DNA of 20,000 nucleotides from an uncultured virus (IMG/VR IMGVR_UViG_3300043571_000407) (Duplodnaviria; Heunggongvirae; Uroviricota; Caudoviricetes), in the IMG/VR virus record IMGVR_UViG_3300043571_000407; one strand, 5' to 3'. The notes under the pieces are model-generated. The model had not been told where the DNA came from, made no database searches, and saw only the letters and a list, made by a program, of their open reading frames with translations. The stretch's first letter is position 1. Each line of letters begins with the position of its first letter. The position numbers and the translations under genes were made by a program. Of the stretch, positions 1-12,114 are shown piece by piece.

Positions 1-882
1 CCGTGCGGCTTCTAGCTTCCGGTTCTCCCGACTCGTAGTATCAAACCGTGTAACAAGCGAATCGTGGCGTTCCTTTAATTCTTTCAATTCACGGAATCGA
101 GTACCGCTAATGGAAGCGAAAGATTCAGGGATTCCTGAATACTCAACTCCATCGCATCTAACTATTGCCATACGCTGTTCATTATCTCCATTATCATTGG
201 TTTTGTTAGGGTTGCTAGGGTTTTCGATGACTTGCCCTGCGACAGCTTGCCCTGCGACAGCTTGCCCTGCGACAGCTTGCCCTGCGACAGCTTGCCCTGC
301 GACAGCTTGCCCTGCGACAGCTTGCCCTGCGACAGCTTGCCCAATCCCCGCAGCACTATCTAATCGGAGGCGAACATCTCCCCCTGCCCTTCCTCGGCTC
401 GTCAAAGCCAAATGGTTGGCACGGACATTAATCTGTTCCCTGTCATAGTGTTGCCCATTCCACACCCCTTCCCCTTGCTTGATGTCGCAGGTATATCCAG
501 CAGATAGTTGTTCCTTTTCCCTTGCATCAATTAGGGCGATCGCCTTAGCATCAAAAAACGACACCAAGCCTTTGATCACCCCTTCAGTCTTGTCATAATA
601 AGCAGAAGAATCAGTCATCCCTACCGTGTAATCCTTGTAGCTTTCGCTATTAAGAAGTCCAACATAGGGATGTTCTATCACCAGGGGGAGGAGTTTGAAA
701 CTCTCTACTGTGGCCAGTTCTGCATTGGTTTCCGGTCTCCTGAGTTCGTGGACTATGGAGCCATCAGGCTGACGATACTCCAACACCCCGTCACAACAAA
801 AAGACCCCTCACAATGGAGACGACCATCCTCAGTTCTTATTACCCTAAATTTAGTTGGAGCATCGAGCCTGATTTCAACCAT
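1..882 (-). CDS. DUF2213-family phage head maturation protein (putative prohead protease + scaffold), 3' end beyond window
   Basis: Manual translation from ATG at 882: MVEIRLDAPTKFRVIRTEDGRLHCEGSFCCDGVLEYRQPDG...LPLVIEHP...EKEQLSAGYTCDI...GVWNGQHYDREQINVRANHLALTSRGRAGGDVRLRLDSAA. The ELSxGY and NHLAxxxxGRAG-like motifs are typical of DUF2213. Open to position 1 and absent from the ORF track. Confidence 0.88.
   Translation of the reverse strand, partial: MVEIRLDAPTKFRVIRTEDGRLHCEGSFCCDGVLEYRQPDGSIVHELRRPETNAELATVESFKLLPLVIEHPYVGLLNSESYKDYTVGMTDSSAYYDKTEGVIKGLVSFFDAKAIALIDAREKEQLSAGYTCDIKQGEGVWNGQHYDREQINVRANHLALTSRGRAGGDVRLRLDSAAGIGQAVAGQAVAGQAVAGQAVAGQAVAGQAVAGQAVAGQVIENPSNPNKTNDNGDNEQRMAIVRCDGVEYSGIPESFASISGTRFRELKELKERHDSLVTRFDTTSRENRKLEAAR
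231..342. repeat. 15-bp tandem repeat CTTGCCCTGCGACAG, 7 full copies plus a partial, encoding (GQAVA)7 in the DUF2213 protein
   Basis: Perfect copies start at 231, 246, 261, 276, 291, 306 and 321; in frame on the minus strand. Confidence 0.97.
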
Positions 883-1014: not shown

Positions 1015-1389
1015 ATGACTATTACAAAAAGAGAGTACCCTTCTAAGAAAACGTTAGGATCTGGTGCATTGGCTCCCTATCGCGCTCTCGGTCGGTCAAT
1101 TCGACGGGATCTTATAAATGCAAATCTTGGGATGATGGAATTTAGCGAGAAAAGTGGGTGGGATTGGCAGACAATTCGACGGATTTTAATGGGGGAGCGG
1201 CGGACGGATTTTATAGAACTGTTGATTATCGCTTCGTTAATTTCTGAGGATCAATCGGAAACGGAAAGACTGATCCTCACCTGGACGAAGGAAACTTTGA
1301 AAATCATCGAGGAAGGAATCCCCCAAGAAATTAACCCAGGTCTTGTTGATAATCTTGTCGAGATTAACGAAGAGATCCCTTTAGAATAG
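1015..1389 (+). CDS. XRE/Cro-C1-type helix-turn-helix transcriptional regulator
   Basis: LGRSIRRDLINANLGMMEFSEKSGWDWQTIRRILMGERRTDFIELLIIASLI fits the XRE HTH pattern. Confidence 0.78.
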   Translation: MTITKREYPSKKTLGSGALAPYRALGRSIRRDLINANLGMMEFSEKSGWDWQTIRRILMGERRTDFIELLIIASLISEDQSETERLILTWTKETLKIIEEGIPQEINPGLVDNLVEINEEIPLE

Positions 1390-1810
1390 CAATAATCTCC
1401 TGACGATTCCGTTGGCTTACTCCTAAAAATTGACGTTTAGGCATTTTCTTAGTGCCTTTTTGTAAATAGGAGCCATAGGGCAATGGAGTCCCTACCTCAA
1501 CCCTTCCTTTTTCAATCCGATATCGAATAGAAGATCGCAACAATCCTTGGCGTTGTAGTATTTGCATAATAAAACCCCGACTAGCCTTGTATTTAAGGGT
1601 TGATGGGGCTAGGTGTTCCCATTTCTCCCCGTAAGGACTCTGTTCCTTTTGAAAGTTCTCGTCGGTTGATGCCACCATAAACTGCCCGACTTTATGCAGT
1701 TCAGGTGTGAGGTTCTGAAACTTTCTGATTAATTTATTTAGATAATTTTGGACTTGGTTGGCAACGAATTTCAGGGATAGCATGGGGTTAAAAGTAAAAT
1801 ATATCCCCAT
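1364..1810 (-). CDS. Phage virion morphogenesis / tail completion protein (Mu gpG, P2 gpS family); start may be ATG 1783
   Basis: Motifs ENFQKEQSPYGEKWEHLAPST, ILQRQGLLRSSI, VGTPLPYGSYLQKG and MPKRQFLG. Confidence 0.85.
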   Translation of the reverse strand: MGIYFTFNPMLSLKFVANQVQNYLNKLIRKFQNLTPELHKVGQFMVASTDENFQKEQSPYGEKWEHLAPSTLKYKASRGFIMQILQRQGLLRSSIRYRIEKGRVEVGTPLPYGSYLQKGTKKMPKRQFLGVSQRNRQEIIAILKGSLR

Positions 1811-1836: not shown

Positions 1837-2364
1837 TTAGCCCTCTAACAGAAACTGCTCTTGTTCTCTGATTACTCTCCAATCATCGTTATTTGCGTCC
1901 AGGGCTTCTTGTAAATCTTCCATAGTCCATTTGCTATAGTGGACTATTTTTTCCAACAGAAAGTCCAACGATTGCCGTGTGAAGACTTTTTCTAATATGT
2001 CATCCAACCCCGTCTCGGCAAACGCAGCCAACAAAATAATGGAATCTTGATTATTGTTAACTACTGCATCCCATGTGATTAACTTCGTAAAGTCTCTGGA
2101 TGAGATGGTCTTGCTTCGGGTTGTCCCTCTAGCTTTCTTTATTTCAGAGTCCTGAGTCGTACCAGAAAAACCAAGCCCTAGCAAAGACTTAAGAACTTCT
2201 GATTCACTTTTTAATAAACGCCCCAAGAAATCTTTCCCCCGACCGATTGCAATTCCGGCCCCAACAATTCCGATCCGTTTCTCTCCATTCGGGAACAGAT
2301 AACAGTCAATAGTTCTATTCCCTAGAGTTAATTCAGCACGGACTGATCGTATAATGTCTGACAT
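1837..2364 (-). CDS. Phage antirepressor-like DNA-binding protein (resembles the N-terminal region of P63C-domain proteins)
   Basis: RAELTLGNRTIDCYLFPNGEKRIG...AIG and LKSLLGLGFSG resemble this phage/prophage regulator family; assigned by pattern recognition only. Confidence 0.55.
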   Translation of the reverse strand: MSDIIRSVRAELTLGNRTIDCYLFPNGEKRIGIVGAGIAIGRGKDFLGRLLKSESEVLKSLLGLGFSGTTQDSEIKKARGTTRSKTISSRDFTKLITWDAVVNNNQDSIILLAAFAETGLDDILEKVFTRQSLDFLLEKIVHYSKWTMEDLQEALDANNDDWRVIREQEQFLLEG

Positions 2365-2873: not shown

Positions 2874-5800
2874 TTAAATTTCTTCGGTTTCTATTATAGT
2901 AAGATCACCTTCTTTTCTTACACTTTTAATTTTATGTCTCGTATTTTTTGATACGACAACCTCGTCCTCTCTCTGTCCAAATGTACTTAAATTTCTAATA
3001 GACACACCCGATTTATTCGGTGCTTTAACGATAACAGGATAGGTTTTCTTGACAGAAGATAGGTTCATGCCAGCAAAATCCTTGGCTTTCTCATAATTAG
3101 AAGTCCAAGAAGCGTGGGCGTTTTGGTTCCCCAGAATTCCATCTTCGCCTTTCACAAACTTATTAAGTTCTTCTTCAGAATCAAAATTCAATCCCCTAGA
3201 TATTTCTCCTGGGAATGGAGTGGATTGCTTTATAAATAAATCAAGGTTATCAGCATCTTTGCTGCTTCTGCCATTTTTCTGATCTTCTCTGATTTCGTAA
3301 GCATTCTCAGACCACTCTTTTACCGATTCAATAACACCCTCAGCGTCTTGAATACCAATTTTCTGCCCCTTTTTAGCCATCATATCCGAATACTCCTGGG
3401 CGTTTTTGGGAGTACCTTCATGGGTTCCATCGCCTAGTGTTCTGGGTGCGGTAAATTCCTGAACTGCGGTTGGTGCTATCTTTTTGTCTGCGTCCGAATT
3501 GGTTATTTCTTCAGTTTGTACATAGAATATGCCATCTTTCTCTGTAACACTTTTGACTTTGTGCTTGGCATCTTTTGAAACAATAACTTCCGATTCTTGA
3601 GGCTTTAGTCCTACATCCTTAATTGATACCCCCGTCTTGTTTTTTGCCTTAATAATAACAGGATAAGCTCCTTCTACATATTGAGACAAAGATGGATTTT
3701 CTTTGTAACTAGCTTTTGAAAAATCATAAGCTACTTTGTCATCAGAAGTCCATGAAGCATGAGCTTTTTGGTTGTCTAAAACGCCGTTTTCATCCCCTTT
3801 TAACCACGTCTCAACTTCTTCTCTACTATAGAAAAGAATCCCTCTACTTACATCCCCATCATAGGGTGTCATGCTTTTCATGAACCTATTGATATTTTCC
3901 TCGTTTTTATTTGGCCTCCCATCTTTTTGATCGTCTCTGACCTCATCGGAGTCTGTGATCCATCTTTTGACTGATTTAATGATTTTCTCAGCCTCCTCTA
4001 TAGTAATGTTTTCCCCTTTTTTAACCATCGCCTCGTAGTATTCTTGTGCGTTTTTAGGGGTTCCTTTGTGGGTTCCATTTCCAATAGTAATTAGTGGGGA
4101 TTCAGACTTTTTTGCTTGTACTTCAGTATCAGTTACTTCCTCAGTTTCTACATATATTATGCCATCTTTTTTCGTAATGTTCTTAACTTTGTGTTTTGCC
4201 TCTTTTGGTACAATAACCTCGTTCTGCAAAATATACTCAGTAGGCCCCATCTTTTTAATTGACACTCCTGTTTTGTTTATGGTTTTGATCATGACAGGCT
4301 GCCCTTCTCTACCGAATCCCCTCCTCTTCGCATAGTCCTCGGCATAGTCCTCCCTGGAAGTCCACGAAGCATGAGCCCCTTGATTATCCAGTATTCCATC
4401 TTTATCACCCTTTAACCAGTTCATTGCTTCTTTCTCTGAAGCAAAGTTTATGCCTCTATGTATTTCCCCTTTGATACCTTCAAATCTCTCGTCATTATAT
4501 GGAGTTGTATTTGCAATGTATTTAGAAATTAAATTTGCGTCTTCGTTAGGTTTATTTTCTTTTTGTGAATTTCTAACTGGGTCGGAATCTTGAGTCCATC
4601 GCCTGATTGCTTCATGTGTCGCCTTGGCCTCGTCTTCCGTTATCTCAATTCCGGCTTTAGTCGCCATATCATAATACTCCTGTGCATTCGTAGGAGCATC
4701 TCTATGAGTTCCATCTCCAATTCGTTTAGGAGTATCTTTAACTATTTCCTCTTTCGGGACTAAAGGCGATTCTTGTTCTTGCGATCGCTCCCCTTGAACT
4801 TTTACTGACTTTTGTTTTACTGCTTCAACGGATTTAACCCTCTTATCCGACTCGATAACTGTGTCTATTATCGTTTTAACCTTCTTCATTTTGCCTTGAG
4901 CATTTGACATGGCTTTTAGCCCATCTCTGTCCAAGCTCCAATCAACATCCGATTTGCCTAAATCAACAATTGCTTTTTTAGCCTGACTCTCGTCATCGAA
5001 ACTCCCTAAAGCCATGCCACTTTTAACATGAGTGACATTATATTTTGCCGTGGGACTCTTGCTATCTCTGTTTACACCAAGGTTTCCATAGATTTGACCA
5101 TCAACTGTTTCGCTTCCAGTTTTGGTTTCGATTTTATATGTTCCGTTTCTTCCCTCTAATTTTTTAGACTCGGATTCTAGCCAATTGTCATACAATTCAT
5201 TTACTGAGTTATCCTTGGATTTTAGCTTGGGTCTAGGGGGAGAATTATCCTCGACTTTTATCGCCTTCTGCTTTGGAGTTTTGGCGACCTTAGCCTTTGG
5301 AGTCTTGGGTGCTTTAGTTGTTAACGGGATAGGTTTAGTTGTCGAATCAGAATCACTGGGACTAACTACGGGAACCGTTATCTTAACATCGGGAGAAAGA
5401 ACATAAGTTTCCGATTCTTTGCTCCCGTCAGGAAGGATCTCTTTTGCAAAAGCATCCCTGGTATATTCATATTTTTGTTTAATATGATCACCAGTCCTGT
5501 CCATTTTTAGGTATAGATAGAAAGTATCACCTTTTTTGAGATCATCTTTGGTGATCACTCTTTCGGTTCCAGAGTCTACAGCAGATTTAATGGCACTATC
5601 AACGGAATCAACCGACTGTTTTGACAGTTTTTCAGCTTTAATTTCTTCTGCTTTCTTTTCAGCTAAGTTTTTATCTATATCCTTTTGTTTTTGAGGATCA
5701 TCTTCAACTGTCCATGCACCAGTCGGGACAGTCATCTTACTGGGCTTACCTGCTTTTGTCTTTTCCCAACCTTTCTCTATAACCATCGTGTTCCCGTCGG

Positions 5801-6500
5801 GATTAACCTTGAGAACTTTGGCTTTCCATTTTTTCGATCCAATAAGTGATCCCGTGACGGAATAAACGGAATCACCCGCTATGGGTACTAAATAGCCATT
5901 CGGTCTTTTGGCTCTATCTGATCCAGTTGCTTCCTTCTTGACTTCTGAAACAAGCGGCTCCGGTGGCTTTGGAGTTAATTTATTATCTTCTTGCTTCTTG
6001 GTTGGGTCATCCTGAACAGCTTTAAATTTCCCTGCTGCGGCTCTGAGTTTATCGACTTTTTCTTGGGAGGGTTTATCCGGTAAATCTGATTTGCAATTCT
6101 TATTCAACCCAATACAGGCTTTGCCGCAGTTATAGGAGGTATTGCCACACTTAGGTTTTTCCTTCCTCTTGGTTTTAACTGCGTCATACCGATAGGTGTA
6201 CCCTTTAGAAAATTCTTCCCACACCACTGGATCGATATCCGCGCTGTCTATTCTTTTCCAGGTAAACGGTTTGAAGGTAATGGAATCCCCAATCTCAAAC
6301 TCAAAAACACGGGATCTAATGGCGTCCTTAAACCGTCCTTTGATGATGTTTTTGTTGCCTACTTCAAAATCCAGAACGATAACCGGAGAGTTGTAGGCAA
6401 ATGGCATCGACAAGACTTGAGAAATACCAAGTTTCATCTGCACTTCTGTTGGGGCAGCATCAAGGCGGAGGGGTGTTTGATAACTTGAAATTGTGATCAT
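2874..6500 (-). CDS. Large multidomain (polyvalent-type) phage protein: shared leader + 4-Cys motif, several small domains, three tandem R-S-E class ADP-ribosyltransferase domains
   Basis: Three ~190-aa repeats (about 4724-4134, 4088-3504, 3440-2877), each with [HS]RG, AHASWTS and [QE]xEV (QNE, ESE, EDE). ATG 6500 preferred to TTG 6515. Confidence 0.85.
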   Translation of the reverse strand: MITISSYQTPLRLDAAPTEVQMKLGISQVLSMPFAYNSPVIVLDFEVGNKNIIKGRFKDAIRSRVFEFEIGDSITFKPFTWKRIDSADIDPVVWEEFSKGYTYRYDAVKTKRKEKPKCGNTSYNCGKACIGLNKNCKSDLPDKPSQEKVDKLRAAAGKFKAVQDDPTKKQEDNKLTPKPPEPLVSEVKKEATGSDRAKRPNGYLVPIAGDSVYSVTGSLIGSKKWKAKVLKVNPDGNTMVIEKGWEKTKAGKPSKMTVPTGAWTVEDDPQKQKDIDKNLAEKKAEEIKAEKLSKQSVDSVDSAIKSAVDSGTERVITKDDLKKGDTFYLYLKMDRTGDHIKQKYEYTRDAFAKEILPDGSKESETYVLSPDVKITVPVVSPSDSDSTTKPIPLTTKAPKTPKAKVAKTPKQKAIKVEDNSPPRPKLKSKDNSVNELYDNWLESESKKLEGRNGTYKIETKTGSETVDGQIYGNLGVNRDSKSPTAKYNVTHVKSGMALGSFDDESQAKKAIVDLGKSDVDWSLDRDGLKAMSNAQGKMKKVKTIIDTVIESDKRVKSVEAVKQKSVKVQGERSQEQESPLVPKEEIVKDTPKRIGDGTHRDAPTNAQEYYDMATKAGIEITEDEAKATHEAIRRWTQDSDPVRNSQKENKPNEDANLISKYIANTTPYNDERFEGIKGEIHRGINFASEKEAMNWLKGDKDGILDNQGAHASWTSREDYAEDYAKRRGFGREGQPVMIKTINKTGVSIKKMGPTEYILQNEVIVPKEAKHKVKNITKKDGIIYVETEEVTDTEVQAKKSESPLITIGNGTHKGTPKNAQEYYEAMVKKGENITIEEAEKIIKSVKRWITDSDEVRDDQKDGRPNKNEENINRFMKSMTPYDGDVSRGILFYSREEVETWLKGDENGVLDNQKAHASWTSDDKVAYDFSKASYKENPSLSQYVEGAYPVIIKAKNKTGVSIKDVGLKPQESEVIVSKDAKHKVKSVTEKDGIFYVQTEEITNSDADKKIAPTAVQEFTAPRTLGDGTHEGTPKNAQEYSDMMAKKGQKIGIQDAEGVIESVKEWSENAYEIREDQKNGRSSKDADNLDLFIKQSTPFPGEISRGLNFDSEEELNKFVKGEDGILGNQNAHASWTSNYEKAKDFAGMNLSSVKKTYPVIVKAPNKSGVSIRNLSTFGQREDEVVVSKNTRHKIKSVRKEGDLTIIETEEI

Positions 6501-6570
6501 GTTTTTAAAAATCAATTAATTCTAGTTTTTTTTGATTGGATCTGTTTTAGTTTACTTTTAAAATATTAAT

Positions 6571-7659
6571 CTAGTTCCACTGAAACAACTCCTCCCCTTT
6601 CTCTTTGACAGAAAATATCTTACTATTGGTTTTAAGATTTTCAAAATGACTATCTAATTGCTGTCGAGAAATTCCATTTTTTTTGGCATAATCATCTAAC
6701 AACTTATTACGTTTAATTGCTACAACCCCCTGTAGTTCCTGTTTTCTTTTTTCTTCGTTATAAAATTCTTTAAAATCTTTCTCGAATTTAGTATAAGATA
6801 TCTGTTTTTCTTTGATCGCTTTTTGTCCTGCACCCAGGTCTTTTGTTTTAGAGGATTTGGGTGCAGGTTGTTTTTTCTGCTCTTTGGGTGTCTGTCCTCC
6901 AGCCCAAGATAATAATTCTTCTCCTTTCTCCATTACTGAGAATATTTTTTTATTATCTTTTAATTTCTCGAAATAATCCTCTAACTGTTCACGGGGAACA
7001 TTGTACTTCCTTTCGGCAATATCTAACATCTGCCTGCGTTTAATTGCTACAACACCTTTTAATTCTTGCTTCCTTTGCTCCTCAAAATAAAGGTCTTCAA
7101 AGTCGCTCTCAAAATTAGAGTAAGAAAGTTTCTTGTCCTTTGATTCAGAAACTTTTGTTTTCTTCTGTTTTTCTCCCCCTTCTTGCCCCTCTTTAAAATT
7201 CTTCGCCAGAGACTTTAGTTTATCTATTCTATCTTTTGAGTTAGCATCATCGGGGTTGCACCTGCAATTTTTCTTAATATTTATACAAGATTTACCACAA
7301 TTATAAGATGTGGGCTTCACGCACTGCGGCTTTTTTTTAGCCCCTCCGGGTGTATCAAAGCGAAAGCTATAACCAAGGGAAAAATCCTCCCATTCCTCCT
7401 CATTGTCCAGTCGCCCAATCTTAAAAGGGCTAAAACGGATATCGTCCAAAATCTCGAAGCTAAACACACGAGGACGATCAGCATCCTTAAACCGTCCCGT
7501 AATTTTACCATCATCACCCACCTCAAAGTCCAAAACAATAACCGGAGAATTATAAATTAACGGGAGGGATAGTGTTTGGGTGATCGCTAACCGCATCTGT
7601 TCCTTGGTAGGAGCAGCATCAAGGCGAGGGGGATTTTGACGGTTTAAGGTAGTGACCAT
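6571..7659 (-). CDS. Paralog with the same leader + 4-Cys motif and two tandem ~77-aa repeats (winged-helix-like)
   Basis: N-terminus aligns with the ART protein (RLDAAPT..YNSPVIVLDFEVG..GRFKDA..WEDFS..SYNCGKSCI). Repeats SYxxFExDF..RKQELxGVVAIKR..KIFSVxEKGEELxxW at about 7134-6904 and 6807-6574. Confidence 0.8.
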   Translation of the reverse strand: MVTTLNRQNPPRLDAAPTKEQMRLAITQTLSLPLIYNSPVIVLDFEVGDDGKITGRFKDADRPRVFSFEILDDIRFSPFKIGRLDNEEEWEDFSLGYSFRFDTPGGAKKKPQCVKPTSYNCGKSCINIKKNCRCNPDDANSKDRIDKLKSLAKNFKEGQEGGEKQKKTKVSESKDKKLSYSNFESDFEDLYFEEQRKQELKGVVAIKRRQMLDIAERKYNVPREQLEDYFEKLKDNKKIFSVMEKGEELLSWAGGQTPKEQKKQPAPKSSKTKDLGAGQKAIKEKQISYTKFEKDFKEFYNEEKRKQELQGVVAIKRNKLLDDYAKKNGISRQQLDSHFENLKTNSKIFSVKEKGEELFQWN

Positions 7660-7711
7660 TGTTTTTGAGAATAGATTTACCGAGTCTTTCTGTACGGGTG
7701 CAGGTCGGGGT

Positions 7712-7936
7712 TTACCAGTCTTCCGGCCCTTGAGCTACAAAACGCTTGGCACGTTCTCGTTTTTCCTCTTCTGTCAAATCGTCATAGCTTTTTTTTGGAT
7801 ATTTCTTAGCCATTCTTTCATCAAATTCCTGCAATGTCTCCCCTTCCCCTAAAGCATCCTCATCTTCGGATACAACAGCAGGAGGAACGGTTTTAATTTT
7901 CTTTTGTCCTTCAACAGCAGTTTTTTTGGCTTTCAT
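7712..7936 (-). CDS. Small highly charged hypothetical protein (74 aa)
   Basis: ATG start, co-oriented with its neighbours, fills the gap between leader-family copies. Confidence 0.55.
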   Translation of the reverse strand: MKAKKTAVEGQKKIKTVPPAVVSEDEDALGEGETLQEFDERMAKKYPKKSYDDLTEEEKRERAKRFVAQGPEDW

Positions 7937-7986
7937 AATTGATTTTCGTTTTTAATGCTAATAGGTCTATTATACTTTGTTTTTGC

Positions 7987-8102
7987 TTAATTAAGTTTAC
8001 TTCTACCAATATCAAAATGTGCTTGGGCGATCGCTAACTTCACCTGGATTTCTGTTGGCGGAGCATCGAATCTTAATTTTGTCCATAAAGTACAGATGTC
8101 AT
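7987..8102 (-). pseudogene. Frameshifted, truncated third copy of the shared leader
   Basis: ATG 8102 gives MTSVLYGQN*; a 1-nt shift gives LRFDAPPTEIQVKLAIAQ, matching LRLDAAPTEVQMKLGISQ and PRLDAAPTKEQMRLAITQ. Confidence 0.75.
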
Positions 8103-8163: not shown

Positions 8164-8556
8164 TTAAATGTAAACACGGGAAGCAAACTCTAGCTCAATC
8201 GTGTCAAACAAGGTTTTCCCTGACACGGTAATTGGGGCAGTGGGTGTCACTTTTCGCAAGTAAGCACTATAAATAATATAGTTTGCAAAAGCCATGTTCG
8301 CACCGACTGGCTGATTGTCGATTAATTTTTGGACGTTTTGGGTTCTTTCGGATTCAAACGTATCAAGATCATCGTCAACAGCACCCTGAATTGTTAGCGT
8401 CACGGATTTCTTTACAAGAGGGATAACCGCTATATCTCCCCCTTGATTTAATTTAACCTCAAGAGTTTCGTCGTCCCCGAACGAGATGTCTTCAGGCTTG
8501 AAGGCGTAATCCTTCCCGGCTCTTGTAATCTTGAAAAAACTAACAGGAATTGGCAT
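8164..8556 (-). CDS. Hypothetical protein, probably virion structural (tail tube or distal-tail-like); ATG 8556 preferred to 8586
   Basis: 130 aa, beta-rich appearance (SVTLTIQG, IELEF near the C-terminus), phage morphogenesis context; product is an inference. Confidence 0.55.
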   Translation of the reverse strand: MPIPVSFFKITRAGKDYAFKPEDISFGDDETLEVKLNQGGDIAVIPLVKKSVTLTIQGAVDDDLDTFESERTQNVQKLIDNQPVGANMAFANYIIYSAYLRKVTPTAPITVSGKTLFDTIELEFASRVYI

Positions 8557-8629
8557 GATAAAACCCTTCTGATCAGAAGTTATCACTATAATTTTAAGGT
8601 TGGATTCTTATAGATCAACGGGACTTTGT

Positions 8630-9319: not shown

Positions 9320-9517
9320 ACAGGTTAAGGTTATATTTTGGAAAGACAAATATACAGGGTCACTAAAATGAGTGTGTAGCCTTTAAAGAAGAACACTCTC
9401 CTCCAGTAGATATAATGGCGGATTTTTTTTTGAGGGAGGGAGGGGCCGGATTTTGCTATAATGAAAACCCAGAGAGAAAGAATCTTTCCGGGGTGTCCCA
9501 CAATCAAAAATAAAATC

Positions 9518-9871
9518 ATGCCCCCGTCTCTAATCTCATCAAATCCACCGTGTCCGCATTGTGGATCTCTAAACCTGGAAGAGCAGAAAACCAAACCCCC
9601 TTATTACAAGAAACTGGTCTGCTTGGATTGTGACCAATTTGTGCGGTGGATACCTCGTCCACAGGGAGTTGAGAAAACCCAGGAGGTACTCAACCAACTA
9701 GAATCAATTGAGAGGGCAAAACTAAGCCCGTGGCAGCGTGAGTTTGTAGAGAAGATGGTAGAAGTATGCAACGAAGCATTAGAGGCGGAGAAAGCCGTAA
9801 AATTGACCCCTCGACAAATTGATCAAATTGCCGAGTTATCCTTCCGAGTGGATTCTATGTTGAGAAGATAG
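9518..9871 (+). CDS. Small zinc-ribbon protein (CPHC...CLDC) with helical C-terminus
   Basis: Two CxxC pairs. Extended -10 TGCTATAAT at 9454-9462 overlaps the track's ATG 9461, favouring ATG 9518. Confidence 0.7.
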   Translation: MPPSLISSNPPCPHCGSLNLEEQKTKPPYYKKLVCLDCDQFVRWIPRPQGVEKTQEVLNQLESIERAKLSPWQREFVEKMVEVCNEALEAEKAVKLTPRQIDQIAELSFRVDSMLRR

Positions 9872-10119: not shown

Positions 10120-12114
10120 CTAATCTAATTGAGCTTGGACATTGATTCTATTTGCTATATCTGTTAATATCTTTCCTTGATAAACTTCGTCAACTTCCTC
10201 TGAGTCTTCTACATCTTGGCGATATTGGTTTAACTCCGTAGGATCGCACTTCTCTACTCCCCCAAAACGATCTAATCCGGCATGGTAGTAATAGCAATCG
10301 CGCACTTCTTTTGGGGAATCAAAACCCAAAAAATACTTTGTTTCGTCAATCTCCCCTGTTGCTGTGTTAAGTTGCCGAACCTTCCAGAGACTTGGTGAGT
10401 TCGGGTTTTTGATGTAAACGTCGATTGCTTTCGCGTCCTCCGCGTGTCCGTAGCTGCGTCTAATATGCCCATACCCTGCCTTCATTGTTTTGTTATAGCG
10501 AAGATCCCCTTTGTCGTGAGTGACCCCAATAGATAGCCCGTGCCAATTAAGAACCCGTTTTATTGGGGTGTAAGCAGCACTGTCCATTTGAGTTATAGGT
10601 TCTTCTTCAACAGGAGCAGGTTCTTCGGTGGGTGGGGCAGCTTCCTCTCCTCCTAACGCCCCCATATCAAAACCACCGAGGGAGTTTGCTTGTTCTTCTG
10701 CTTTCTTCCTGGCTTCTTCCCATGCTTTTTGATCAATGTTAAATTCTGGCCACCAATCGGAGTTAGAAGGTACTGTCCGAGCTTCGTTGGGCGTAATAAA
10801 TCCGGCTTGAATCCCTGAAGCTAAGGCTTGAATATCAGATAAGCGTCCAGAGCGAAGATCCTCAATGGTCATTCTCAAAATTGAGGGATACTGCCTTTGA
10901 TAGTCGTCGGGGATTTTGCCTTTTGTGGGGCCGTCTTTGGCCAAGAAGATATAGCGATCAAGAATAGCCGCACTAGGATCTAAATTCTCTCCCTGGTACT
11001 CTGCTACCGAGTTAGCGTAGTTTATTTGGGTTTCCTTGCCATCACGCCCTAACCCCCCAGGGCTTTCCCCCCAAACTATCGTGTGAGGCATTCCAGAGGC
11101 CCCCGTAACCCCATCCTTTTGTACTTGCACAAGTGAATCCATCCCGGCGAGGGGACGGGCGTTCCAGTTGAATTGTTCACGGGAGTCATGGAGAACCATG
11201 CCATATAAATCAAACATTAATCGAATTGATTTCATGGTTTGCTTAATAGCTGCAATACTTTCTTCATCAGATGCCATCATCAGTTCCCGTAGTCCTTCAA
11301 AAGAATGCTGTAAAACCGATTGGGTTTTAATCAATTCGCCTACTGCATTGAGTCCATTTGTATAGTTTTTGTAATACTTCCAAACCTCGTCAAAGACACT
11401 CAACCCCCATCCATTATTGTAAGAAATCATCCAATCATCAGGCATTAATGCCCCATTAAACCGAAGGATTCGAGACCGATGAATAAGGCGATCATCTTGC
11501 TTAGAGTTTGTTTCGTTAAACAGTAATTTTTGTTTTATTTGTTGGTCAATTGTTAGGATTTCATAATGTTCAATATCATCAAGGTCAAATATACTCGCAG
11601 CCGTTCTCACCGAAGGAGCAACTTGCCATCGGTGACGAACAATTAACCCAGAAATTGATTTAATCTTGCCTTCGTTAACAGGTTCGGAATAATGTCTCCC
11701 GTCATTAATCTTGAGAATAATAACTGTCCCGCCGTGAGAACGAGAGAACTGTAAGGCTTTTCTAAATTGTGATCTAGTTTTTAGTCTTTCGTGATAAGCA
11801 TAGTAATCGCGGACTAATTTAGAACCCACCTTACTAGAGAAATCATCCCCCAAGGATAACTGCCACATCTTTTGGGTTGACGAAGATGGAAGGCTCCACG
11901 CTATCCGCTTTAAGATCGCGTCCGCCAAGCAATTCTCGACCTGTTGCTGGGAGAAAGGTTGGATTCTTCCCGTTACAGGGAGAGGATTTCGCATCGAATT
12001 TGCGTCGGCACTCTCCGCCAACGCTTGCATCATGACGCGAGAGTCTTCCCGATAACGGTTCGCAATCTCTGTGGTGGTTTCTTTTTTTGTTGTCTCGGAT
12101 GATTGGGCGGTCAT
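10120..12114 (-). CDS. Portal protein (DUF1073 family) fused to a C-terminal inorganic-pyrophosphatase-like (InPase) domain
   Basis: Portal motifs SRSHGGTVI, IHRSRILRFNG, GWGLSV, GASGMPHTIVWGESPGGL and ITPNEAR. After an acidic/Pro linker: WHGLSIGV..GDLR..YGHI..DAKAIDVYI..VRQL..DETKYFLGFDS. Confidence 0.85.
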   Translation of the reverse strand: MTAQSSETTKKETTTEIANRYREDSRVMMQALAESADANSMRNPLPVTGRIQPFSQQQVENCLADAILKRIAWSLPSSSTQKMWQLSLGDDFSSKVGSKLVRDYYAYHERLKTRSQFRKALQFSRSHGGTVIILKINDGRHYSEPVNEGKIKSISGLIVRHRWQVAPSVRTAASIFDLDDIEHYEILTIDQQIKQKLLFNETNSKQDDRLIHRSRILRFNGALMPDDWMISYNNGWGLSVFDEVWKYYKNYTNGLNAVGELIKTQSVLQHSFEGLRELMMASDEESIAAIKQTMKSIRLMFDLYGMVLHDSREQFNWNARPLAGMDSLVQVQKDGVTGASGMPHTIVWGESPGGLGRDGKETQINYANSVAEYQGENLDPSAAILDRYIFLAKDGPTKGKIPDDYQRQYPSILRMTIEDLRSGRLSDIQALASGIQAGFITPNEARTVPSNSDWWPEFNIDQKAWEEARKKAEEQANSLGGFDMGALGGEEAAPPTEEPAPVEEEPITQMDSAAYTPIKRVLNWHGLSIGVTHDKGDLRYNKTMKAGYGHIRRSYGHAEDAKAIDVYIKNPNSPSLWKVRQLNTATGEIDETKYFLGFDSPKEVRDCYYYHAGLDRFGGVEKCDPTELNQYRQDVEDSEEVDEVYQGKILTDIANRINVQAQLD

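Follow-up and report, generated by a model that had tools for sequence, protein, structure and literature searches.

The genes described here lie in a 20,000-nucleotide stretch of DNA from an uncultured tailed virus (IMG/VR record IMGVR_UViG_3300043571_000407; Caudoviricetes), referred to below as the window. By megablast, 58% of the window matches Planktothrix phage PaV-LD at 89% identity. Between positions 2874 and 8102, the listing of open reading frames (ORFs) contains two intact, co-oriented genes, both on the minus strand, that open with the same N-terminal module, termed here the leader, and continue into dissimilar C-terminal parts, termed cargo. A shorter copy of the leader lies upstream of them. 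The features of this array are as follows (aa, amino acids; ART, ADP-ribosyltransferase; R-phi-D, a short motif with the strict form R-[LFIVMY]-D-[AST]; P numbers denote proteins and L numbers contigs or loci).

2874-6515, minus strand: leader-cargo gene A, 1213 aa from TTG at 6515; the probable start is ATG at 6500, which gives the 1208-aa database form P0038
5988-6500, minus strand: leader of gene A, with R-phi-D sites at 6456-6467 (RLDA), 6243-6254 (RIDS) and 6180-6191 (RYDA) and a four-Cys knuckle at 6093-6149
4731-5987, minus strand: variable middle of gene A, parts of which are common to PaV-LD ORF065R (47% over query positions 210-411) and other contigs
4134-4730, minus strand: ART-like domain 1, R ... 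HASWTS ... Q-N-E-V
3504-4088, minus strand: ART-like domain 2, R ... HASWTS ... E-S-E-V (Pfam ART PF01129, E 0.0036, under the cut-off)
2877-3443, minus strand: ART-like domain 3, C-terminal end of gene A, R ... HASWTS ... E-D-E-V (Vis ART 4xzj, E 0.08)
6571-7659, minus strand: leader-cargo gene B, 362 aa, leader and two 75-aa repeats; P0002 is 91% identical
7150-7659, minus strand: leader of gene B, with RLDA at 7615-7626, RFDT at 7351-7362 and a four-Cys knuckle at 7258-7323
6577-7128, minus strand: cargo of gene B, two tandem 75-aa repeats (6904-7128 and 6577-6801), 59% identical to each other
7989-8102, minus strand: leader-only relic, 28 leader-like codons in frame over 7989-8100 and then a stop, reading ...LRFDAPPTEIQVKLAIAQAHFDIGRSKLN before it

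The first ~170 residues of the leaders of genes A and B align at 49-53% identity. The alignment spans YNSPVIVLDFEVG, GRFKDA, WE[ED]FS.GY and R[YF]D and then reaches C-x6/7-C-x3-C-x6-C, the four-Cys stretches of the two leaders being CGNTSYNCGKACIGLNKNC (aa 123-141) and CVKPTSYNCGKSCINIKKNC (aa 113-132). Past about residue 175, proteins A and B show no relationship. With the leader as query, a word-indexed search retrieved 46 relatives (362-1357 aa, E 1e-98 to 1e-31), and all 46 have the Cys motif, at residues 87-119; since it stands at the same place in every relative, the leader match is not due to chance. In gene A the leader is followed by a middle of ~420 aa of no recognised fold, for which a family search and a PDB search gave no match, and by the three ART-like domains. 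The gene A product matches phrog_16619 (“minor head protein”) at E 6.9e-207, and PHROGs places the leader proteins in this family and in phrog_33618, for which no function is named.

The former ATG of the relic, at 8102, is out of frame, and the ATG frame stops after nine codons. Because PaV-LD has an intact 38-aa ORF (ORF059R) at this position, the window copy is frame-broken. A short relic is present in 11 mapped loci, and a complete leader gene stands at its place in contigs L010, L013 and L020. In addition, protein P0044 (879 aa; leader, ART and GNAT) begins with the relic's N-terminal sequence. Judged by these full genes and by the start of P0044, the third locus is the remnant of a third leader gene. 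The sequence-only reading of this DNA, made before any database search, had described one leader at three co-oriented loci, the third a remnant, and both points agree with the comparisons above.

The leader is predicted to have two parts: a helix with a four-strand domain, and a second part made of an R-phi-D-[AST] linker, a basic stretch, the knuckle and a long helix. An AlphaFold model of leader B from a 33-row alignment (mean predicted local distance difference test, pLDDT, 76.8) places a helix at 19-30, strands at 40-78, a helix at 87-95, a disordered stretch at 99-106, the knuckle at 118-134 and a helix at 139-164. Residues 19-95 (helix, four strands, helix) are modelled with confidence, in blocks above 90, as are residues 118-164, a small beta knuckle with the cysteines followed by the long helix. 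Residues 99-106, which include the R-F-D-T site, fall below 50 and are the sole low-confidence stretch between the two confident parts. The four-cysteine knuckle is probably zinc-binding. PaV-LD encodes eight leader-related genes, of which four carry the whole leader, one (103 aa) the beta half only and three start at the knuckle half; therefore the leader halves are separable modules. A complex prediction of portal residues 1-500 with the leader scored 0.01, was run with no controls and speaks neither for nor against binding.

Database comparisons bore out the claim that the leader is neither MuF nor another named domain. The leader had no match among the Pfam and NCBIfam models. Proteins A and B did not match Pfam Phage_Mu_F (E<=0.01) or NCBIfam SPP1 gp7 (E<=1), the profiles of the MuF family, and the ART repeats alone gave no such match at E<=10. 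Foldseek returned no PDB match to the leader model at E<=1e-3, and the best VIA-align score (Z 4.5) is within noise, the beta half weakly resembling VirB8/cystatin-like arrangements. A PDB sequence profile search yielded only 7cay_A (E 0.1), and an Atlas structure search gave no usable match. Among the predicted viral structures of BFVD, the leader's matches comprise five proteins of PaV-LD, a 906-aa and a 453-aa protein, and three from Nodularia phages, of which one is annotated as ParB-like and one as DUF3626; 453 aa and 906 aa (half of 1811) are the sizes of gp045 and gp048 of cyanophage CL131. No description of the module was found in the titles and abstracts searched, and the supplementary domain lists of PMC5512222 could hold one.

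The C-terminal repeats of gene A number three, are ~190 aa each and share 41-50% identity with each other. They contain, in order, the R, S-W-T-S and [QE]-x-E motifs of R-S-E ADP-ribosyltransferases, and across 11 aligned ART domains R83, S112, S115 and E161 are invariant, the last motif reading QNE, ESE and EDE in the window repeats. In a profile comparison, the repeats align with Vis ART 4xzj at the corresponding motifs (E 0.08). Relatives exceed the Pfam ART cut-off (P0004, 25.5; P0013, 26.4; P0081, 28.1 and 26.9; a gene of L031, 27.8), and the window protein itself, at 17.1 bits against a cut-off of 22.3, does not, which counts against the assignment. With the ART repeat alone as query, only one protein was found. 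Motif order and conservation point to domains of the R-S-E, or Alt/VIP2/C3-like, type with predicted ADP-ribosyltransferase activity. The 75-aa repeats of gene B were modelled as all-helical at poor confidence (pLDDT 58.5). In Pfam they resemble only DUF7774 (E 0.0056, below the cut-off), Atlas scores of at most 0.79 included no usable match, and PDB matches at E 0.01-0.04 look compositional. The divergent C-termini of the sequence-only reading stand as three ART-like domains and two 75-aa repeats; its winged-helix label for the latter found no support, the model being poor as well as all-helical and no usable match having been found.

The surrounding genes place the leader array in a tailed cyanophage's head-assembly module. 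Scanning viral contigs gave 28 loci, and with PaV-LD 29 loci were mapped using local profiles. In these, the slot between the portal-p140 side and the morphogenesis-DUF2213 side is occupied by one to three leader genes, which differ in length and content. The genes that frame the slot in the window, and one within it, are as follows.

10120-12114, minus strand: portal gene (Phage_portal_3/DUF1073) with a fused C-terminal InPase domain (Pfam)
8164-8586, minus strand: 140-aa gene (p140), gene context of the portal side
7712-7936, minus strand: 74-aa gene between the relic and gene B, kept in 21 of 30 mapped loci, with C-terminal RFVAQGPEDW
1837-2364, minus strand: 175-aa gene (p175; phrog_32599 in PHROGs, no Pfam match)
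1364-1810, minus strand: Mu-G-type virion morphogenesis gene (family matches)
1-882, minus strand: DUF2213 head maturation protease-scaffold, first 294 aa (Pfam, PHROGs)
859-870, 355-366 and 37-48, minus strand: R-phi-D sites in the DUF2213 fragment, the first being the N-terminal RLDA (residues 5-8)

Further leader genes form a second set a few kilobases downstream of the head genes in L008, L010, L015, L021 and PaV-LD (ORF078R-085R). Tails were compared by domain calls with hidden Markov models (HMMs), which replaced a window-based single-linkage clustering that had chained all tails through their repeats. ART-like domains occur in 25 of the 46 relatives, as one copy in 17, two in seven and three in one, and the last copy ends the protein in 24 of the 25. 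The other 21 relatives have different ends, for example a 544/545-aa class (ParB-like per one source); P0044 carries GNAT. Often, it appears from these layouts, the most variable part of a leader protein is its middle, the ART itself being recurrent. A contig search of genomes with one alignment found only three loci (L036-L038), all phage-like and in metagenome bins.

In PaV-LD, an ART is annotated as a separate ORF behind each of two leader genes (ORF061R/062R and ORF065R/066R; L001 13492-16489 and 17678-20604), in another frame or after a stop, and related contigs have a single ORF there (e.g., L009 752-3166); a frameshift, a sequencing error or a real split could be the cause. The bins that hold L036-L038 are labelled Gammaproteobacteria and Acetobacteraceae, and these are probably mis-binned cyanophage contigs.

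The sequence-only reading had likened the array to polymorphic toxins. Taken literally, this would make it a MuF-type toxin system with cognate immunity genes for bacterial competition, the relic being an orphan cassette, and the conserved N-terminus, the variable C-terminus, the relic and the toxin-like R-S-E ART domains would all suit it. However, the MuF domain was not found, and the 25 terminal ART domains fall into six subtypes whose distribution is not mirrored by the gene downstream: behind subtype A2 stands p175, another leader gene or a Bro-like gene, and the 175-aa neighbour comes after 16 of the 25 terminal ARTs, across four subtypes. The relic is the constant N-terminus and not a displaced toxin tip, and the relatives are phage contigs, the sole genome matches being the three loci in metagenome bins. 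We rejected the toxin-immunity reading for this lack of co-variation between ART subtype and downstream gene, and consider it very improbable. What holds of the likeness is a constant N-terminus with interchangeable C-terminal parts, whereas the immunity-gene test fails.

More distant relatives show the leader as a hub joined to many partners. A profile of 12 leaders, run against 1.84 billion representatives, found 224 cluster representatives at E<=1e-3, 108 at <=1e-10 and 36 at <=1e-30, with lengths of 45-1975 aa. Architectures were counted in the 140 new representatives among the best 150 of the 224. In these the domain is full and N-terminal in 92, internal in 20, reduced to the knuckle part in 13 and partial in 15; knuckle copies number none in 23, one in 95, two in 16 and three in six. 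Pfam partners include InPase (10 proteins), ADPrib_exo_Tox/ART (4), ParB_N (3), DUF676/lipase-like (3), Pkinase (2), LRAT (2), LPD1 (2; P0098 and P0160), DnaJ (2), GNAT (1) and pentapeptide (1), and most of the 140 have no Pfam match at all. Multi-domain members include P0092 (InPase, leader and ADPrib_exo_Tox), P0044 (leader, ART and GNAT) and P0160 (LPD1 and DnaJ), besides esterase and LRAT types. The sequence-only reading had proposed to tabulate C-terminal domains and linkage to portal and DUF2213 genes. Tails differ both among the 46 relatives and among the 140 representatives, and the linkage was seen in the 29 mapped loci and in two distant contigs, L030 and L031.

These two contigs each encode DUF2213, a cement protein, a major capsid protein (MCP; PF09950), a portal and three leader genes. 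In L030 (17203-20546) and L031 (9441-14121) the portal is without InPase and the next gene combines InPase, leader and cargo, whereas in the window it is the portal that carries InPase. Such an exchange of InPase suggests that both kinds of protein, portal and leader, bring cargo to the same compartment. The CL131 portal, gp012 (L035 3801-7982), is 1393 aa long, about twice the usual size, has R-phi-D-A at residues 21 and 206 and is probably another portal-cargo fusion.

The R-phi-D motif links the leaders to the protease-scaffold and the capsid protein. Eight of nine occurrences of R-[LFIVMY]-D-[AST] in the window are in the DUF2213 fragment (three) and the two leaders, and one is in the other 14 window proteins examined; both leaders have the motif at residues 12-20 and again just ahead of the knuckle. 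The PaV-LD genome (137 ORFs, 28,564 aa) contains 16 strict motifs, compared to 4.3+-2.1 in shuffles. Fifteen of the 16 are in six motif-bearing leader-family proteins, the protease-scaffold and the MCP, where 0.71 are expected and none of 1000 shuffles reached 15; the other 129 ORFs have one, against 3.6 expected. The PaV-LD protease-scaffold alone has six (0.2 expected; 0 of 5000 shuffles), and R-phi-D-[ASG] occurs in the protease-scaffold in 6-7 copies. In the PaV-LD capsid protein the motif is at residues 9-12, and with G allowed in the last position only two of the 137 ORFs, the protease and the MCP, have it within their first 25 residues. N-terminal motifs recur in CL131 (MCP, EIRMDA; protease, AIRFDS) and in L030 and L031 (MCP, VRMDG and IRMDG; protease, YRADS). 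R-phi-[DN] stands within 24 aa upstream of 142 of 205 knuckle instances, internal copies in giant proteins included. The pre-knuckle consensus is [LI]-E-[AE]-R-[LIM]-D-A, followed by 2-10 residues rich in K/R and then the first Cys.

In phage T4, the protease gp21 cuts after L/I-x-E, with many cuts in the scaffold, short N-terminal propeptides removed from virion proteins and a site near its own N-terminus (PMC9026906, as far as its accessible text describes). From the T4-like distribution of sites over scaffold, capsid protein, protease and packaged proteins we infer, tentatively and with somewhat less than even confidence, that the DUF2213 head protease recognises R-phi-D-[ASG] as its cleavage signal. 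Several points weigh against this. The motif was already known when the protein groups of the shuffle test were picked; the leader sites are part of a conserved domain, so that paralogues and orthologues are not independent counts; and the MCP motif may be conserved by descent. The pre-knuckle R..D also persists with a fourth residue other than A, S or G (RLDR; RIDG is also cited), and a docking or binding motif would fit the distribution equally. MCP homologues (817 phage records, mostly T1-like) align only from residue 21-37 on and are uninformative for the N-terminal motif, and the titles and abstracts of the DUF2213 papers searched contained nothing on cleavage specificity.

Evidence from virions comes from the related cyanophage CL131, for which 23 virion proteins were detected with liquid chromatography-tandem mass spectrometry; Table S5 lists gp044, gp045, gp047 and gp048 with 9, 33, 14 and 105 peptides, respectively (accessible portions of PMC6293099). 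A sequence scan of the CL131 record found the knuckle in all four proteins, with four knuckles in gp048 (residues 18, 627, 957 and 1291) and R-L/F-D-A directly ahead of a knuckle in gp047 and gp048. In a related cyanophage, proteins with the knuckle are thus shown to be components of the particle, be it of its head or of its tail. As a guide to the window proteins, these data are limited in three ways. The CL131 proteins are distant (E 1e-11 to 1e-2 per stretch with the leader profiles) and mainly have the knuckle half in common with the leader; their genes adjoin the tape-measure gene, which makes a place in the tail lumen rather than the head possible; and the case for packaging of the window proteins is drawn from CL131 relatives rather than from their own virions or those of PaV-LD, PMC9096620 offering nothing on virion proteins.

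The tail location has to be weighed as an explanation of its own. The leader proteins might belong to the tail or neck as structural or ejection components, for instance as tail-lumen proteins travelling with the tape measure, the knuckle being a structural or oligomerisation element; their enzymes would still reach the host, via the tail. In both PaV-LD (ORF078R-085R) and CL131 (gp044-048), leader or knuckle genes have the head-tail connector genes on one side and the tape measure on the other; the annotation of gp047 notes similarity to a tape-measure-domain protein, a single R-phi-D-S site occurs in the PaV-LD tape measure, and the authors of the CL131 paper (PMC6293099, accessible portions) were unable to identify a major tail protein. 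Yet the window array is flanked by the portal and the head protease, where head-internal proteins are usually encoded, the motif is common to the MCP and the protease-scaffold and not to tail genes generally, and InPase alternates between the portal and a leader protein. On this evidence a tail or neck role is unlikely.

Less likely still is a reading in which the enzymes are late and cytoplasmic, act inside the infected cell and are never packaged, the shared N-terminus serving for their regulation or folding and the R-phi-D likeness being coincidental or due to a shared binding motif. The weak fold resemblances of the beta half (best Z 4.5) and the retention of R..D beyond plausible cleavage contexts would agree with this. 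Against it stand the consistent placement of leader genes within structural modules in several phage lineages, the presence of knuckle proteins in CL131 virions, and cargo types typical of injected polyvalent proteins (PMC5512222, in the part of that survey available).

We conclude that in this region a PaV-LD-like cyanophage probably carries a variable array of genes for virion-delivered effectors, and packaging and delivery is, on balance, the favoured function of the leader proteins. A constant module would tie interchangeable cargo to particle assembly. Leader proteins would be made late and built into the procapsid alongside the protease-scaffold; the DUF2213 protease would then cut after R-phi-D-[ASG] in its own scaffold part, at the MCP N-terminus and in the leaders; and the basic knuckle with its cargo would stay in the particle and exit with the DNA at infection. 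Binding of metal or DNA by the knuckle, like injection of the cargo, is a prediction from sequence. The sequence-only reading had proposed the leader as an address tag that loads effectors into the capsid. Loading into virions is plausible, given the structural module and the CL131 proteome, but the half-leader genes of PaV-LD do not agree with a single tag, and the choice between capsid and tail lumen is not settled.

An extension of this reading, speculative and rather doubtful at present, is that R-phi-D-A, the basic stretch and the four-Cys knuckle form a reusable cut-and-anchor cassette, with the DUF2213 protease cutting upstream of every knuckle. Single leader proteins would thereby lose the beta domain as a propeptide, and giant proteins with up to four knuckles (CL131 gp048; P0088, P0095 and P0098) would be diced into several effectors, each fragment starting with a basic zinc knuckle that would hold it on the packaged DNA until ejection. 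If true, the cassette would be a second, independent solution to the problem solved in T4 by the targeting peptide and gp21, and a general grammar for effector polyproteins in the large group of DUF1073/DUF2213 phages.

The neighbourhood of the array has some further features. The C-terminal motif RFVA[QN]GPEDW is common to the 74-aa protein (7712-7936) and the 44-aa PaV-LD ORF067R (L001 20617-20751), and both proteins adjoin leader or ART genes. The 175-aa gene has its first 33 codons duplicated, at 85% identity, at 2648-2746 on the minus strand, between the ART gene and the full gene at 1837-2364; L002, L016, L017, L018 and L023 have the same duplicate. Within the DUF2213 gene (231-342), 7.5 perfect tandem copies of a 15-nt repeat encode an (AGQAV)n run directly after an R-L-D-S site of the protease-scaffold. 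PaV-LD has ~2 copies and L023 a long run with A/I changes, and the repeat has the look of a linker that varies in length. On the plus strand (9461-9871), opposite to and between the portal and p140, lies a 136-aa gene whose match to a Lar-like zinc ribbon is weak; it is found in L008, L011, L012, L015 and L016 and is missing from the same place in PaV-LD and several other contigs.

Four known systems invite comparison. Like MuF genes (PMC5512222 and PMC9503650, each as far as accessible), leader genes lie just after the portal and combine a constant N-terminal part with diverse C-terminal enzymes, ARTs included, and for both head packaging and delivery with the DNA are presumed; the window array accordingly lies next to the portal, between it (10120-12114) and the DUF2213 protease (1-882). 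Unlike MuF, the leader is a two-module unit with a Cys knuckle, has several paralogues per genome and shows no immunity pairing. With the polyvalent proteins, as the available text of PMC5512222 presents them, the leader family has in common multidomain architecture and virion context, ART, InPase, ParB, GNAT and LPD domains, InPase on portals, and large proteins with repeated modules (up to 1975 aa in the leader family). Members with at least two disparate effector domains per polypeptide were found, encoded among virion and packaging genes. The differences are that the leader hub is not in Pfam, LPD families included, and that processing by the head protease is proposed. No zincin metallopeptidase is listed among the Pfam matches of the 140 representatives, and the accessible main text of PMC5512222 does not use the words “cysteine”, “knuckle” or “ribbon”.

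Another parallel is the T4 capsid targeting sequence of the internal proteins and Alt, which the prohead protease gp21 removes (PMC9026906, available sections). It is an N-terminal element on unrelated packaged proteins, one of them an ART, in a set that varies between related phages. In both cases a short motif occurs in the scaffold (many copies), the capsid protein, the packaged proteins and the protease N-terminus. In contrast to T4, the motif is R-phi-D-[ASG] and not L/I-x-E, the protease is DUF2213-type and not gp21-type, the element is a folded module of ~160 aa and not a 10-residue peptide, and cleavage is proposed only. In phiKZ-like phages, many large head-internal proteins, those of the inner body, are cut at a short motif by gp175 and the fragments stay with the DNA, according to the same available sections of PMC9026906; the leader phages belong to another group, with another motif and protease, and no inner body is known in them. 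The leader thus fits a new, unnamed two-part module within a known strategy, that of packaged or polyvalent effectors. The sequence-only reading had suggested an undescribed effector-delivery family, and this is upheld for the domain, which is new, but not for the strategy, which has been described (PMC5512222, accessible text).

Delivered effectors are among the main means by which phages take over hosts and counter their defences. They have so far been recognised mostly via MuF, portal fusions and T4-type targeting peptides. A module that is absent from Pfam and NCBIfam and present in more than 200 protein clusters would flag packaged effectors for annotators, in cyanophages of the bloom-forming Planktothrix, Aphanizomenon and Nodularia as well as in many uncultured phages, and would account for the hypervariable slot in PaV-LD-like genomes. 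If R-phi-D-[ASG] is the DUF2213 site, the mature ends of capsid, scaffold and cargo proteins would become predictable from sequence, and the module could bring foreign proteins into particles, like the T4 targeting sequence.

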